This document shows positions 29,052 through 34,799 of a DNA stretch of 64,000 nucleotides, in pieces; positions within the stretch are counted from its first letter, which is position 1, and each line of letters begins with the position of its first letter. Below the pieces are notes generated by a model. The model worked only from the letters and a program-made list of their open reading frames with translations, was not told the origin of the DNA and made no database searches. A program made the translations under genes and the position numbers. Source of the stretch: Candidatus Hydrogenedentota bacterium (lineage in GTDB: Bacteria > Hydrogenedentota > Hydrogenedentia > Hydrogenedentales > JAEUWI01); assembly GCA_034669905.1 (NCBI GenBank), contig JAXMOL010000002.1, positions 189,248 through 253,247 of the forward strand, read 5' to 3'.

Positions 29052-29645
29052 ATGAGCGAATACGTCCCACGCATTCTCGCCTTCGCCGGCAGCACCCGTA
29101 GCGATTCCTACAATAAGAAGCTGGCCGCCGCCGCGGCAGAGGCCGCCCGGGCTGCCGGAGCCGACGTGACCCTCGTCGACCTTCGTGACTACCCCATGCC
29201 CTTATTTGATGAAGATCTTGAATCGGCAGAAGGGCTTCCCGAAAGTGCGGTCAAGCTACGGGAATTGTTCCTGCGTCATGACGGACTGATCATCGCCTCA
29301 CCGGAATACAACGGTTCCCTGAGCGCGGTGTTGAAAAACACCATTGACTGGCTGAGCCGTCGCCAGGGCGATGAAACACCGCTCATCTGCTTCCGCGAAA
29401 AGGTGGCCTTACTCCTCGCCGCTTCCCCCGGTGGCCTCGGCGGCCTCCGTGCCTTGCGACACCTCAACACCATCCTCCACGGGATTCAGGTCATCGTGCT
29501 CCCCGAACAGAAGGCCATTCCTGCGGCCCACAAGGTCTTCGACGACACGGGCATCGCCGATGCCAAAGTGGCGAAATCCGTCGCCGATCTCAGCACCCGG
29601 CTCGTTGAAATGACCACGCGCATCCACCAGAAAAACAACGGCTAA
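29052..29645 (+). CDS. NADPH-dependent FMN reductase
   Basis: GSTRSDSYN, SPEYNGS..LKNTIDWLSR, SPGGLGG. Confidence 0.93.
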   Translation: MSEYVPRILAFAGSTRSDSYNKKLAAAAAEAARAAGADVTLVDLRDYPMPLFDEDLESAEGLPESAVKLRELFLRHDGLIIASPEYNGSLSAVLKNTIDWLSRRQGDETPLICFREKVALLLAASPGGLGGLRALRHLNTILHGIQVIVLPEQKAIPAAHKVFDDTGIADAKVAKSVADLSTRLVEMTTRIHQKNNG

Positions 29646-29669
29646 AGTCCAACCGCCCCCTGCCGATAA
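29643..29669 (+). promoter_or_regulatory. Sigma28 (FliA) promoter P1
   Basis: TAAA-N15-GCCGATAA, exact consensus. Confidence 0.88.
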
Positions 29670-29676
29670 GTAAAGC

Positions 29677-29849
29677 ACAGGCCAAGACACGGAAGTCGCG
29701 GCGACGAATTGACACGGAGGTCAACGGAGGTGGCGAAAGAGACTAGATGAACCGTCGGGTGTCATCCCAACACCAACGCGATCGACGTTTTGTCCCACAG
29801 TCTTTCCATCCATGAGAGGCGCCATAGCACACGCTGTTGTGGCGTTTTT
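29677..29849 (+). ncRNA. Candidate sigma28-dependent sRNA-1 (CsrA hairpins; antisense to flagellin-2 initiation region)
   Basis: Promoter, GAC-ACGGAN-GTC hairpins, 26 of 29 nt complementary to 32921-32949, terminator 29819-29849. Confidence 0.75.
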
Positions 29850-29945
29850 CTATTTTATCCGCCCTTTTTCCCGCGTACGCTGCCCCACGCCCCCCGACTT
29901 TTCGCCCACGCCCCAGCCGCCCATCCAACGCCGGCACATTTCCGC

Positions 29946-29972
29946 TAAAGGTTCTCGCTCCACCGCCGATAC
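29946..29972 (+). promoter_or_regulatory. Sigma28 promoter P2
   Basis: TAAA-N15-GCCGATAC. Confidence 0.85.
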
Positions 29973-29979
29973 TCTAATC

Positions 29980-30146
29980 ACAAGGCGACGACACGGAGGT
30001 CAACGCCGGCACGACACGGACGTCATTGCTACTTATCCTGGATACATACTCACAGGGTGGCCAATCCCACCACCTGCTATTGGGAGTGCCCCAGGGTCTT
30101 ACCTCTGAAACGCGTTGCGGTCTACACTGCAACGCGTTTCAAATTT
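29980..30146 (+). ncRNA. Candidate sigma28-dependent sRNA-2 (CsrA hairpins; antisense to flagellin-3 RBS)
   Basis: Promoter, two GAC-ACGGAN-GTC hairpins, GGGTCTTACCTC pairing with GAGGTAAGATCC, 15-bp terminal hairpin 30106-30141. Confidence 0.72.
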
Positions 30147-30179
30147 ATGGGGCATACTCCACCGATCCCATATTTCTGC

Positions 30180-30206
30180 TAAAGTTTTCTGCGGCACCGC
30201 CGATAC
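30180..30206 (+). promoter_or_regulatory. Sigma28 promoter P3
   Basis: TAAA-N15-GCCGATAC. Confidence 0.85.
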
Positions 30207-30213
30207 CATCATA

Positions 30214-30342
30214 TTAAGAGACAGATTTAACGTGTTCTTCAAGGAACGCTGGGGTGTCTATCCCGCACCGTATTCCAGCCGTTAATCTCTGCTTCTTACC
30301 TCCCCTGGTTGCGTCATGGCATTGAACCATGGCGCATCTTTT
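30214..30342 (+). ncRNA. Candidate sigma28-dependent sRNA-3 (antisense to flagellin-3 RBS)
   Basis: Promoter, shared ATCCC-loop hairpin, TCTTACCTCC complementary to 33968-33977, terminator 30310-30342. Confidence 0.7.
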
Positions 30343-31114
30343 ATGTGGGCTCCACACCGTCATACAGCACTTCCTTCATGACTAGCCCCTGGGGCGGTGC
30401 GCAATGCCCCAGAAATGGCCCCCCCGACACCAACGCCTCCTGAAGAAACTCCGGACCAAAACGCCCCCGCCCTATCTCCACCAACGTGCCGGAAAGATTA
30501 CGCACCATCTTATAAAGGAATCCATTGCCAAAAAACTCGATGTGCCACAGGTTCTGGCCGTCCCGGGGGCCCACCACCGCCCCTTGATGGAGCGTCGCGG
30601 CGTAAATCGTACGCACCGTCGTCTTCATCTGACACCCCGTGCTCTGAAACCCTGCGAAGTCATGGGTCCCCTCCAGTTGAGGCAAGAGCGACCGAATAAG
30701 GTCGATATCCACCCCGTAAGGAACCTGCCAGCTATAGGGAGCACTGAAGGGGTCCATTTCCCGACTGAAGTGAAAGGTATAGCAATAGCGCTTGGCCTTC
30801 GCTGAAAATCGGGCGTTAAAATCGGCAGAAACCGCTTCCAACGCCGTAATTTGGATTTCCGGCTCTAACATGCGACACAACGCATGGCGCAACGTGGGCG
30901 GCACCGCCTTGGGCCATTCACAGGAAAAGACCTGTCCCAGGGCGTGGACCCCCGCATCGGTGCGGCCGGCCCCCTGAATGCGGATAGGCTGAGAGGCAAT
31001 CCGGCTCATAGCCGCCTCAATATCCCCTTGAACCGTCCGTTGGTCCTGTTGGGCTTGCCAGCCGGAGAAGGGCGTTCCAAGATAGCGCACAGTGCCTTTG
31101 AGTGTGGTGGTCAT
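30341..31114 (-). CDS. truA: tRNA pseudouridine(38-40) synthase
   Basis: GAGRTDAGVHA, FNARFSA, GFLYKMVR. Confidence 0.96.
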   Translation of the reverse strand: MTTTLKGTVRYLGTPFSGWQAQQDQRTVQGDIEAAMSRIASQPIRIQGAGRTDAGVHALGQVFSCEWPKAVPPTLRHALCRMLEPEIQITALEAVSADFNARFSAKAKRYCYTFHFSREMDPFSAPYSWQVPYGVDIDLIRSLLPQLEGTHDFAGFQSTGCQMKTTVRTIYAATLHQGAVVGPRDGQNLWHIEFFGNGFLYKMVRNLSGTLVEIGRGRFGPEFLQEALVSGGPFLGHCAPPQGLVMKEVLYDGVEPT

Positions 31115-31426: not shown

Positions 31427-31453
31427 TAAAGTTGTCGCTCAAGTTGCCGATAA
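31427..31453 (+). promoter_or_regulatory. Sigma28 promoter of the flagellin operon
   Basis: TAAA-N15-GCCGATAA, exact, with A/T-rich UP element. Confidence 0.9.
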
Positions 31454-31459
31454 ATACTA

Positions 31460-31898
31460 CAGGTAAGCCGAAACAGGCCTTATTCAGGACAGTTTAAAAA
31501 AGTGAAATACGGAGTCCAGGGACGGGTTTCCGCGACATCATGGAGGATGGCGCATTCAGCGCGGGGTATGCACCCGCACGACGGCCTCGAGGCCGACGAC
31601 AACAATTGAATCACGTTGATCGAATACTTCGGTATGGATGAAGGCAGAGCAGGATGCTCAACGGCTTCATCAAGAAGAAACGTCGCAGTTAACGAATTGC
31701 CTGAAGCACGGGACATGCCTCAGGGATAACGGAGACTGCTTTCGAAATCAATGGGACCAATCGATTTCACGTAGAAATCGGTTTCTGACGCACCGGACCA
31801 TGGGACGGTAGCCGCCACACCGTGGTGGGTTACCCGGGATGGGACGTCAGAGGGAGCGCAAGGATGCGCTCTACCAACCACTCACGGAGGAATACATC
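31460..31898 (+). promoter_or_regulatory. ~440-nt flagellin leader rich in CsrA-type GGA sites
   Basis: 19 GGA trinucleotides counted by eye; hairpins GAGCAGGATGCTC and GAGCGCAAGGATGCGCTC. Confidence 0.7.
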
Positions 31899-32714
31899 AT
31901 GGGACTTCGAATCAACACCAATGTGTCTGCGCTCAACACGGCGCGGGTCTTACGTAGCTCAACGCTGGACTTGAACAAGAGCCTGCAACGGCTCTCCAGC
32001 GGATTGCGTATCAACCGTGCGGCCGATGACGCCGCAGGCCTGGCCATCGCCGAGGGTTTTCGCTCGGTGGTACGCGGCACGCAGGTTGCCCAGCGCAATG
32101 CGCAGGACGGAATCAGCCTGGTGCAGACGGCGGAAGGCGCATTGAGTGAAACGACCAACATACTGCAGCGTATTCGCGAGCTCGCCGTACAGGCAGCCAA
32201 CGGAACGCAGAGTACGGCAAACCGCGTATCGCTGGATGCCGAAGTCGATCAACTGTTAGCCCAAATCGATGATATCGCGTTTGACACGGAATTCAACGGT
32301 GTCCGGGTACTCAGCGGCGGCACTGTGCTGACGCTTCAAACCGGCGCTTTCCAGGGACAAAACCTGTCGATTGTGGTGGGTGCTGCGGGTCAGAACCAGA
32401 TCGGTGTTTCGCCGGTTAACCTGCAAACCGCTGCCGGTGCCATCAGTGCACTCAGTACGGTAGACGGTGCCCTGCGCTCGGTGAACACGCTCCGGAGTAA
32501 TCTGGGTGCCTTCCAGAACCGTCTGGAGTTCACCATCAGCACGCTCGCAATCCAGGAAGAAAACTCTTCCGCGTCCGAAAGCGCTATACGAGATGCCGAC
32601 ATCGCCCAGGAAACGATTCGCTTTACGCGGAATCAGATCCTGGTAAACGCCGGTACATCGATCCTGGCCCAGGCCAACATCGTGCCACAGACGGCACTGC
32701 AGTTGCTGGGTTAA
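31899..32714 (+). CDS. fliC: Flagellin 1 (271 aa)
   Basis: MGLRINTN, RLSSGLRINRAADDAAG, QRIRELAVQ, IRDADIA. Confidence 0.97.
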   Translation: MGLRINTNVSALNTARVLRSSTLDLNKSLQRLSSGLRINRAADDAAGLAIAEGFRSVVRGTQVAQRNAQDGISLVQTAEGALSETTNILQRIRELAVQAANGTQSTANRVSLDAEVDQLLAQIDDIAFDTEFNGVRVLSGGTVLTLQTGAFQGQNLSIVVGAAGQNQIGVSPVNLQTAAGAISALSTVDGALRSVNTLRSNLGAFQNRLEFTISTLAIQEENSSASESAIRDADIAQETIRFTRNQILVNAGTSILAQANIVPQTALQLLG

Positions 32715-32942
32715 TACACGTCGACAACCAGGGCGGCCGAACCTCAAGGGATACGAGGGGCCGGAAACGGAATTTATGGCCACCGGCCGCCCTGATAATC
32801 TTCAACGTAGAGAAAGGAGAACATAGGACTGCGAGTACTTAACGAGTCGCGTCGTTGAGCATTCGGTTTTTGTCAACTATCACGGAAGAATGAATAACAA
32901 AGGGATCGGGAATCCCTTTGGCCACTCATGGAGGAAAGTACT

Positions 32943-33761
32943 ATGGGACTTCGAATCAACACCAACGTGGCGTCGCTTAACTCGGCGCGTACCCTGAGCC
33001 GCTCTACGAGCGCGCTTAACAAATCGCTGGAACGTCTCTCCAGTGGTCTCCGCATCAACCGCGCAGCCGATGACGCTGCCGGTCTGGCCATCGCCGAAGG
33101 ATTTCGGTCGGTGGTGCGGGGCACCCAGGTCGCCCAGCGCAACGCACAAGATGGGGTCAGCCTCGTGCAAACCGCGGAAGGGGCGTTGAGTGAAACCACC
33201 AACATCCTGCAGCGGGTACGCGAACTGGCCGTACAGGCCGCGAACGGAACGCAGAGCTCTGAAAACCGTGCGGCCCTGAACACCGAAGTATCGCAGCTGC
33301 TCGCACAGATCGATGATATCGCCTTCGACACCGAATTCAACGGTGTGGCGGTATTGAGCGGCAGCAGCACCCTCACCTTGCAAACCGGCGCCGAATCGGG
33401 TCAGACCCTGCAGATTGCTATCAGCAGTGGTGCGGGCCAGGCCGCCATCGGCGTGAGCACCGTCAACATTTCCACCTCGGCCGGCGCCGTCAGTGCCCTC
33501 AGCCAGGTGGACGTAGCCCTGCAGCGGGTCAATTCCCTCCGCAGTAACCTCGGTGCCATCCAGAATCGTCTCGAATTCACCATCAATACCCTGGCGATTC
33601 AGGAAGAAAACTCGGCCGCCTCAGAGAGTGCGATCCGGGATGCGGACATTGCCCGCGAAACCATTCAGTTTACGCGGAACCAGATTCTGGTCAGTGCCGG
33701 CACGTCGGTACTTGCCCAGTCCAATGTGGTTCCCCAGACGGCGTTGCAGCTTCTCGGCTAA
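32943..33761 (+). CDS. fliC: Flagellin 2 (272 aa)
   Basis: Same N- and C-terminal flagellin motifs. Confidence 0.97.
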   Translation: MGLRINTNVASLNSARTLSRSTSALNKSLERLSSGLRINRAADDAAGLAIAEGFRSVVRGTQVAQRNAQDGVSLVQTAEGALSETTNILQRVRELAVQAANGTQSSENRAALNTEVSQLLAQIDDIAFDTEFNGVAVLSGSSTLTLQTGAESGQTLQIAISSGAGQAAIGVSTVNISTSAGAVSALSQVDVALQRVNSLRSNLGAIQNRLEFTINTLAIQEENSAASESAIRDADIARETIQFTRNQILVSAGTSVLAQSNVVPQTALQLLG

Positions 33762-33980
33762 TTCGCCATCCATAGTTTAAACCGGTTGTAACGTGGTGGC
33801 TCCGGCCCTTCCTTTGGAGGGGTCGGAGCAGCACCGTAACTATACGGAAGGAGTGCATCAGTCGGCCGATTTGCCGTCCATTTACCCACCGCGGGGATAA
33901 ATAGACGATGAGAAGGCCACGAAGAACATACACCGGGTTGGTTAGGGATACCCGACCGGGTGATCTTGGAGGTAAGATCC

Positions 33981-34799
33981 ATGGGATTACGTATAAATAC
34001 GAACATCCCGGCTCTCAACACGAGCCGGGTGCTCGATCGTTCCAGCCGTGCCTTGAACCGCAGTCTGGAACGGTTGAGCAGTGGTCTCCGCATCAATCGC
34101 GCAGCCGATGATGCGGCAGGCCTCGCTATTGCCGAGGGCTTTCGCACCCAGGTGCGGGGCACCCAGGTGGCGCAACGCAATGCGCAGGATGGAATCAGTC
34201 TCGTACAGACGGCCGAAGGGGCGTTGAGCGAAACGACCAACATCCTGCAACGCATTCGAGAACTCGCGATTCAGGCCGCCAACGGAACCCAGAGTTCCGC
34301 CAACCGCCAGTCACTCAACAACGAAGTGCAGCAGCTGATTGCCCAGGTGGAAGACATCGCTTTGGACACTCGGTTTAATGGCATCAACGTGTTGAGCAGC
34401 AACCAGTCCATCACGCTCCAGACCGGAGCCAATCCGAGCCAATCCCTTCAGGTGACCATCGGCGGCGCACGCAGCACCGATCTGCGCGTAAGCGCCGTCA
34501 ATATTTCGGCCGCGGCAGGCGCTATCAATGCCATCAGCCAGGTCGATATCGCGCTGGCAAGTGTGAACACCTTACGGAGCAGTCTCGGTGCCTTTCAGAA
34601 CCGGTTAGAATTCACCATCAATACCCTGGCCATTCAGGAAGAGAATTCGGCGGCCGCCGAAAGTGCTATCCGGGATGCCGACATTGCCCGGGAAACGATT
34701 CAGTTTACACGGAATCAGATCCTCGTGAATGCCGGTGTCAGTGTATTGACCCAGGCCAACGTGACCCCCCAGGCGGCGCTCACGTTGTTGAGCACATAA
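33981..34799 (+). CDS. fliC: Flagellin 3 (272 aa)
   Basis: Same N- and C-terminal flagellin motifs. Confidence 0.97.
   Translation: MGLRINTNIPALNTSRVLDRSSRALNRSLERLSSGLRINRAADDAAGLAIAEGFRTQVRGTQVAQRNAQDGISLVQTAEGALSETTNILQRIRELAIQAANGTQSSANRQSLNNEVQQLIAQVEDIALDTRFNGINVLSSNQSITLQTGANPSQSLQVTIGGARSTDLRVSAVNISAAAGAINAISQVDIALASVNTLRSSLGAFQNRLEFTINTLAIQEENSAAAESAIRDADIARETIQFTRNQILVNAGVSVLTQANVTPQAALTLLST

Follow-up and report, generated by a model that had tools for sequence, protein, structure and literature searches.

Three short transcription units lying in tandem on a contig of a Candidatus Hydrogenedentota bacterium (JAXMOL010000002.1; the window is the whole stretch analysed, 64,000 nucleotides (nt) at positions 189,248 to 253,247 of the contig) are predicted to encode antisense RNAs, here termed s1, s2 and s3, directed against the flagellin genes of a nearby operon. 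On the evidence of sequence comparison it is probable that these RNAs act without a chaperone, each blocking translation of its own flagellin, and that two of them also bind CsrA. Each copy appears to be keyed to one flagellin of the operon, s1 to fla2 and both s2 and s3 to fla3, whilst a fourth copy, s4, encoded on another contig, is probably keyed to fla1.

The units occupy the gap between an FMN-reductase-like gene and the convergent truA gene. Exact copies of the promoter pattern TAAA-N15-GCCGATA[A/C], which is of the sigma28 (FliA) type, stand at 29643, 29946, 30180 and 31427; these four in the window compare with an average of 0.29 in 100 shuffles, none of which gave more than two. The first three precede s1, s2 and s3, and the fourth lies upstream of three flagellin genes and a FlaG-like gene; an earlier note on this DNA had described the three FliA promoters in the gap and the same promoter type ahead of the flagellin operon, and both were found again, far above the shuffles. 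The gap had also been regarded as free of credible open reading frames; frames of 50-120 codons do span it but their frame and length vary among the five genomes compared, and protein coding was rejected on this ground. The units are better conserved than the spacers (98% for s1 versus 40% for spacer in the nearest genome), measure approximately 177 (s1), 165 (s2) and 130 nt (s3) and have fold z-scores of -2.1, -4.4 and -4.0, respectively. A terminator scan places terminators at 29814-29850 and 30310-30336, so that the hairpin ends ascribed to units of 130-170 nt are present, but the upper length is not borne out, s1 being nearer 177 nt. The comparison with Rfam that the note had suggested was run and gave no match to 29643-30342 up to an E-value of 10; in 10 homologous loci nothing reached the gathering score. 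A weak RsmY-like match (16.6 bits, gathering score 57) at 31638-31768 was rejected as a known family, falling as it does in the fla1 leader, outside the units. Guide RNAs of the TnpB/TldR type, considered from the accessible part of a report of such RNAs beside flagellin and csrA (PMC10705468), were also rejected, as the neighbours here are the FMN-reductase-like gene and truA and no such protein is encoded at the locus.

The RNAs are composed of two modules. Module A, at the 5' end, comprises two GAC-ANGGAN-GUC hexaloop hairpins, of which both loops are nearly invariant in 36 copies and the stems are paired in 99-100% of cells, never with both sides varying. Its GGA motifs lie a median of 24 nt apart (87 copies), a spacing that resembles the layout of 156 flagellin leaders, where 23 nt separate the upstream GGA from the Shine-Dalgarno (SD) sequence. 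Binding of CsrA is predicted for most copies of the family. Module B consists of a long stem with a UCCC loop at its apex; the 3' strand of this stem continues into a pyrimidine tail, and the terminator follows. Changes on both sides affect three of the five pairs of the apex stem (20 s1-type copies), and in 45 of 53 distinct apex hairpins, which were chosen by a rule that demands pairing, the best fold leaves the UCCC unpaired. Both modules are found in s1, s2 and s4, and module B alone in s3.

In s1, two GGA hairpins are followed by the long stem, with its UCCC apex loop and an ACGCGA bulge, the antisense tail and the terminator; in the best fold the tail lies mostly inside its own stem, with the apex and bulge open. 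The tail of s2 (30090-30105) is antisense to the SD and AUG of fla3, and this RNA ends in a 16-base-pair hairpin (30106-30141) that is strong but poor in its U-tract. In s3, an AUCCC apex (30260-30264) is followed by a tail (30283-30303) complementary to fla3. The ATCCC loops of the three units (at 29764, 30064 and 30260) and segments complementary to flagellin start regions are therefore common to all, as had been described, but the single layout envisaged for every unit does not extend to the GGA hairpins, which are present in s1 and s2 and missing from s3. These hairpins are absent from all eight s3 orthologues of the genus, and the single AAGGA motif of s3 is gone in the nearest relative.

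Coordinates of the predicted RNAs, their promoters and the flagellin operon (window positions unless a contig is named)
Feature	Position	Strand	Remarks
s1 sigma28-type promoter	29643..29669	+	stop codon of the preceding FMN-reductase-like gene falls in the -35 box (29643-29645)
s1 RNA	29676..29856	+	predicted 5' end; covariance model 129 bits; partner fla2
s1 CsrA-type module	29681..29724	+	two GAC-ANGGAN-GUC hexaloop hairpins, GGA motifs 25 nt apart
s1 apex loop CAUCCCA	29763..29769	+	complement of GGGA loop in fla2 leader
s1 unpaired ACGCGA bulge	29776..29781	+	complement of UCGCGU loop in fla2 leader
s1 antisense tail	29792..29822	+	predicted to pair across fla2 SD and start codon
s2 sigma28-type promoter	29946..29972	+	exact pattern
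s2 RNA	29979..30146	+	two GGA hairpins; AUCCC apex 30064-30068; covariance model 108 bits
s3 sigma28-type promoter	30180..30206	+	exact pattern
s3 RNA	30213..30343	+	antisense half only; partner fla3; covariance model 37.5 bits; terminator overlaps truA stop on opposite strand (30338-30343)
Promoter of fla1-fla2-fla3-flaG operon	31427..31453	+	sigma28-type, exact pattern
fla1 leader	31460..31898	+	long (440 nt); CsrA-type hairpin 31854-31871; SD
Flagellin fla1	31899..32714	+	
fla2 leader	32840..32949	+	three predicted s1 contact sites
Flagellin fla2	32943..33761	+	
fla3 leader	33930..33990	+	predicted s2/s3 contact sites
Flagellin fla3	33981..34799	+	
s4 RNA	G000:C63:15890-16070		contig C63; fourth copy, modules A and B

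Across 19 genomes, s1 is matched to fla2 at three predicted contacts, each of which co-varies. For this comparison 19 s1-type RNAs were set against partners picked by position, namely the second flagellin gene of each operon, leaving out four near-identical genomes, copies without a fetched second gene, and genomes G013 and G014. The contact between the tail and the SD/AUG region is stronger with a genome's own partner than with foreign ones (-34.2 versus -29.7 kcal/mol; permutation p 5e-5, this and the following p-values being overstated because the genomes are kin), and in G030 an atypical SD is matched by the tail over 16 nt. Between the apex loop and the GGGA site, which lies at about -35, the longest perfect match is 5.5 nt for own and 4.8 nt for foreign partners (p 0.0012); in family f8 the GGGA site is shifted to -51 to -63, with matching changes in the loop. 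The bulge likewise fits the loop of its own partner better than that of foreign partners (p 0.0035). Its complement, a UCGCGU-type hairpin loop at -87 to -100, occurs in all 19 own leaders, whereas the hexamer is found in 11 of 145 other leaders, four of these being fla2 of the dropped genomes. For G043, with a bulge of ACACGA, the loop UCGUGU was predicted before the locus was examined and was then found at -90, and in G047 a compensatory pair joins the bulge AUGCGG to the leader CCGCAU. In the present genome the corresponding sites of the fla2 leader are a UCGCGU loop (32847-32852), a GGGA hairpin (32898-32920) and the SD with the start codon (32921-32949); the fla3 leader carries a UAGGGAUA hairpin loop (33943-33950), an SD (33968-33972) and its start at 33981.

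When the tails were ranked against 28,129 SD-led starts, many of them spurious and without regard to accessibility, fla2 came first for s1 (-40.9 kcal/mol) and fla3 nineteenth for s3. When only the 1,737 ATG starts that have a strong SD are considered, the flagellin ranks become 1 for s1, 2 for s3, 17 for s2 and 112 for s4. Between paralogues of the same genome, the assigned flagellin is the best partner in 14/14 s1, 10/10 s2 and 6/7 s3 pairs. For the terminator loop of s4, GUCCCAUUG, a complement of 9-10 nt is found in the fla1 leader at -139 to -154 in all nine genomes of the genus (here CAAUGGGAC at 31749-31757), and further afield it measures 12 nt in G017, 9 in G020 and 8 in G025, with no clear preference in G029, G036, G042 and G049.

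A survey of the leaders of 165 flagellin genes from 51 genomes, 11 genes being unplaced, separates the operon flagellins from those that stand alone. Between -70 and -25, 72 of the 80 downstream genes of operons carry GGGA, as do 25 of the 41 first genes and only 2 of 33 stand-alone genes with short leaders; within 330 nt it is present in all 41 first operon genes. The synonymous start AUG-GGA is distributed similarly (75/80 downstream, 36/41 first, 4/33 stand-alone). In genomes having both operon and stand-alone flagellins, the latter is the best co-folding partner for none of 62 copies with module B and for one of seven without it. The present genome encodes five flagellins: the three of the operon, the stand-alone fla4 (contig C15), with its own sigma28-type promoter and an 88-nt leader, and a divergent one on contig C39. 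As fla4 retains canonical A[ACU]GGA sites and has no RNA contact sites, it should respond to CsrA and not to the RNAs. The fifth flagellin (G000:C39:65835; 46% identity), which also occurs in relatives, has a TATAGT-type -10 box and neither a sigma28-type promoter nor CsrA-type GGA sites.

Other features of the leaders were noted. That of fla1 (31460-31898) is rich in GGA hairpins, contains the motif AUGGGAC three times and may itself sequester CsrA or the RNAs. About 130 nt before fla2 and fla3 (32811-32819 and 33846-33853) there are motifs resembling a strong SD (AAAGGAG/GAAGGAG) that lack a start codon; retained in most relatives, they are candidates for a ribosome stand-by site, a third CsrA site or a stabiliser of processed mRNA. 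Stabilisation of mRNA by SD-like sequences of the STAB-SD type is a known concept, and is not favoured here, RNase J being below cut-off in 21 of 21 genomes. In G023 and G031 (L121, L123), a complete leader of the fla3 type with SD and AUG persists about 220 nt before the third flagellin, heading a nine-codon frame that folds as a hairpin; it is still matched at -48 kcal/mol by the GGA-less RNA of the genome, and could be a relic target, a decoy or a coupling device.

The family extends across the phylum. The promoter-plus-hairpin pattern was found in 79 of 133 genomes of the order, and a reversed control pattern in none. A covariance model built from 36 copies matches 101 of 135 phylum genomes, with one to five copies each, among the 20 candidates scored per genome, a few weak matches being mRNA leaders. 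Within the order, 100 genomes have both the RNA and a flagellin domain, 7 flagellin only, 1 a weak RNA match only and 25 neither; the RNA is thus present in 100 of 107 genomes with a flagellin domain and in 1 of 26 without, although the 25 lacking both are not independent, because 21 belong to one family. The model found no match in the two phylum genomes outside the order, nor any above 13 bits in 36 flagellin loci from other phyla, which were the extent of the survey. This conservation in relatives, a check that the note had called for, together with the co-varying contacts, lends good support to its central proposal, namely that paralogous RNAs of the sigma28 type form a family complementary to flagellin start regions. 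The array itself does not stand as the unit: a fourth copy lies elsewhere, the RNAs of most genomes are distant from the flagellin operon, and although eight of the nine genomes of the genus keep three units (two were seen in the ninth), the array adjoins the flagellin operon in only three of them, lying otherwise 13-27 kb away or on another contig, as expected for trans-acting RNAs. A fifth copy in the present genome was sought and rejected, the remaining model matches (at most 25.7 bits) being bare terminators or coding DNA (two of four inspected).

The two halves can also part company. The dual function first ascribed to every unit, CsrA hairpins plus antisense, holds for s1 and s2 and fails for s3, and in some lineages the halves are separate RNAs. 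In family f13 (L254, L255, L257, L259, L262, L264) they are separate genes, encoding hairpin-only RNAs of about 110 nt and antisense-only RNAs; the idea that this family possesses hairpin RNAs alone proved wrong. At four further loci (L010:1771-1944, L024, L187, L283) both GGA hairpins are present, but the UCCC loop is missing from the 3' half, which is complementary to none of the fetched flagellins; other targets are possible. A sigma28-type promoter and a GGA-bearing SD also lie upstream of a small Cys-rich protein with CxxC motifs, conserved across the order (G000:C34:6914, minus strand; L170-L172, L175).

In three studies, RNA-library contigs that originate from relatives, mostly 88-95% alike, extend over s1-s3 and the operon; they give neither strand nor ends and lend weak support to transcription. 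Operon contigs of two studies begin at 31468-31479, just downstream of the promoter. truA and most of the reductase gene have no cover in four RNA runs, which carries no evidential weight, and word shares in the runs were 0.06-0.11, from which no habitat was inferred.

Several points weigh against the proposed pairing and its assignments. The RNA contigs derive from relatives, some span promoters and spacers, and no DNA run accompanied them. Flagellin starts were expected to top the genome-wide ranking, and do so for s1 but not for s3 or for s2, whose tail places fla3 only 261st of the 28,129 starts, whilst the best flagellin for the s4 tail ranks 1,926 and fla1 14,428. Five of the s2 targets were assigned after the energies had been seen. 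Co-folding of the whole RNA gives only -7.3 kcal/mol for s3 with fla3, weaker than with fla1 (-9.5). The pairing of s4 with fla1 is less sure because co-folding of start regions favours fla2 in this genome (-15.4 versus -12.5 kcal/mol for fla1). G013 and G014 keep the bulge without a loop at the usual place, and kissing pairs of 4-6 nt are beyond scoring by the folding tools used.

Despite these points, antisense repression of the matched flagellin is very likely, and CsrA binding by the predicted hairpins is held with equal assurance. FliA would transcribe the RNAs and the flagellins together, forming an incoherent feed-forward loop. The UCCC apex loop, and in s1 also the ACGCGA bulge, would begin by kissing hairpin loops in the leader of the mRNA, after which the tail, sequestered in its own stem, would exchange strands to cover the SD and AUG; the final duplex over the SD/AUG and the kiss over the upstream CsrA-type loop would then bring about repression, so that the operon flagellins are capped or pulsed. 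Kissing followed by strand exchange is the course taken by chaperone-free antisense systems. The location of the s1 tail within a stem, with apex and bulge open, fits this order of events, as does the finding that Hfq and ProQ have no match in the 96% complete assembly. FliA, CsrA and FliW are encoded, with csrA directly downstream of fliW. Module A would mimic the CsrA operator, with its two sites, that flagellin leaders carry, binding one dimer and lowering free CsrA, which would favour fla4. The outcome could be a fixed flagellin ratio or an early-to-late change in the filament; it may be inferred, as the earlier note had done, that the RNAs set flagellin ratio or order, and an ordered filament in particular is put forward tentatively. 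In its widest form the proposal would be a phylum-wide RNA address code, in which private leader loops are read, chaperone-free, by their own sigma28-made RNA through two kissing contacts and strand exchange, with CsrA titration alongside FliW, and synthesis moves from the operon flagellins to the site-free stand-alone flagellin, thereby ordering the filament; this may be the case, but the balance tips slightly against it. Gating of tail exposure by CsrA was rejected as a general rule, since blocking the GGA loops shifts mean accessibility only from 0.51 to 0.55 (72 copies), with a rise of more than 0.1 in 15 of the 72.

How CsrA enters the scheme admits another reading, in which it serves as matchmaker or stabiliser, a dimer on the RNA hairpins delivering the RNA to the flagellin leader or protecting it. 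A precedent exists in Bacillus subtilis CsrA with SR1 and ahrC (accessible part of PMC6546359), and GGA hairpins on both partners, two sites per RNA, far below the number in CsrB, and the failure to find Hfq or ProQ would all suit such a role. The halves nevertheless look independent, given that 18 GGA-less antisense-only copies are listed from many lineages and hairpin-only RNAs exist in f13. A dimer bound at two sites 24 nt apart would be fully occupied, with no face to spare, the mRNA's own CsrA loop would be masked by the apex loop, and blocking the GGA loops barely alters tail accessibility, as noted above. Matchmaking is therefore considered unlikely as an account of the family, and titration is the role for CsrA that is modestly preferred to it.

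A second model reverses the direction of regulation: the RNAs would be CsrA decoys, and pairing with idle flagellin leaders would inactivate or degrade them and free CsrA. The remnant leader of G023 and G031, kept without a flagellin to repress and yet matched by an RNA at -48 kcal/mol, could be understood in this way, and a FlaX sponge is known in Vibrio (10.64898/2026.08.28.747715, accessible part). However, the RNA matching the remnant, like all s3-type copies, is devoid of CsrA hairpins and would have nothing to release; moreover, the pairing sits exactly over the SD and AUG, and one copy per paralogue would be superfluous for decoy turnover. This model is very unlikely. More improbable still is activation of flagellin synthesis, whereby the kiss with the GGGA loop would evict CsrA onto the RNA hairpins or open an inhibitory fold. 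The apex loop is indeed complementary to the upstream CsrA-type loop of the mRNA, and FlaX activates some flagellins whilst repressing another (same source), but the co-varying tail covers the SD and start codon with 16-24 pairs, from which the ribosome would be excluded. Finally, that the complementarity is a by-product of inverted leader copies or a plain anti-SD, the units being simple CsrA sponges or relics, is scarcely credible and largely refuted by co-variation: the 5' half does resemble a flagellin leader, and many other sites in the genome match the s2 and s4 tails equally well or better, but compensatory changes occur at three separate contacts with paralogue specificity, the RNAs are lost with flagella, and antisense-only copies are retained across families.

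Repression by matched antisense RNAs, if true, would mean that RNA paralogues duplicate and co-evolve with flagellin paralogues in a phylum with almost no regulatory biology. Many bacteria carry several flagellins, and control of amount or order among near-identical ones is known in few cases. According to the accessible part of a 2020 review (PMC7652899), it was unknown in any species whether FliW and CsrA-binding small RNAs act together; genomes of this phylum hold both FliW and predicted CsrA-binding RNAs, with defined parts. Controls are already provided by the natural compensatory pairs, and an antisense design that needs three keys and no chaperone, and of which orthogonal variants occur in nature, would be useful for synthetic regulation. 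No description of the RNA family was found in the literature searched, which was mostly open-access and left motif-survey supplements aside.

Comparison with known systems, for which the accessible parts of the cited papers were used, shows both shared and differing features. FlaX of Vibrio cholerae and V. parahaemolyticus pairs at three sites with one flagellin leader, including the SD (PMC11879080), blocking initiation and altering filament composition (PMC11879080; 10.64898/2026.08.28.747715). The RNAs described here resemble it in their predicted multi-site pairing with the leader of one paralogue, SD included. FlaX, however, is a single, ProQ-associated RNA of the sigma54 class, cut from a flagellin 3' untranslated region (UTR), which pairs with SD-like single strands, whereas the present RNAs have their own sigma28-type promoters and terminators, no ProQ match in their genome, predicted contacts of the loop-loop type, CsrA-type hairpins, and one to two paralogues per flagellin, with no sequence family match. 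The sigma28-dependent small RNAs UhpU, MotR, FliX and FlgO of Escherichia coli (PMC10578931) and CjNC1/CjNC4 and FlmR of Campylobacter (PMC4626219, PMC11187230) are made in the last flagellar class, a timing that the present RNAs, with their conserved sigma28-type promoter at the 5' end, would share, and CjNC1/CjNC4 are also paralogues acting without Hfq. Unlike the RNAs here, they are UTR-derived or of about 45 nt, and their targets are regulators or genes for ribosomal proteins or of the sigma54 class; CsrA hairpins are not mentioned in the abstracts, nor is any pairing of one RNA with one flagellin.

The ANGGAN hexaloop hairpins are shared with CsrB/C and RsmX/Y/Z. In contrast to the CsrB/RsmZ sponges, which have 5-22 GGA sites, there are two in s1, s2 and s4 and none in s3, and where CsrB/C and RsmX/Y/Z are under BarA/UvrY control, these RNAs possess a sigma28-type promoter, an antisense half and no Rfam Csr/Rsm match. 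CopA and RNAIII are kissing-loop antisense RNAs. LhrC of Listeria is a multicopy RNA of Firmicutes with C-rich loops (PMC4132741). The family has in common with LhrC and the kissing-loop RNAs its multiple copies, UCCC-type loops, predicted rearrangement on binding and presumed independence of Hfq. In LhrC the C-rich motif pairs with the SD and the copies are redundant, whereas here UCCC is complementary to a GGGA loop further upstream and divergence has given the copies different targets. McaS is a single-copy, Hfq-dependent RNA with targets including csgD and flhD. Like GadY, it is a base-pairing RNA of E. coli that binds CsrA and has two or more GGA motifs (PMC7652899), and s1, s2 and s4, but not s3, similarly combine GGA sites and a separate pairing region in one RNA. 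The E. coli host of McaS lacks FliW, whereas the RNAs described here form a flagellin-dedicated family in a genome that has FliW and in which, at 96% completeness, Hfq was not found. The flaA leader of Campylobacter jejuni is a CsrA antagonist with two GGA sites about 21-25 nt apart (PMC4894983), a spacing like that of module A, and the two-site layout is that of hag and flaA (PMC7652899, PMC4894983). By analogy, the family appears to work like FlaX and to be built like McaS, and belongs to neither; what is new, as judged from its sequences, would be the three contacts between s1 and fla2, the keying of each RNA to a paralogue and a stand-alone flagellin free of contact sites.

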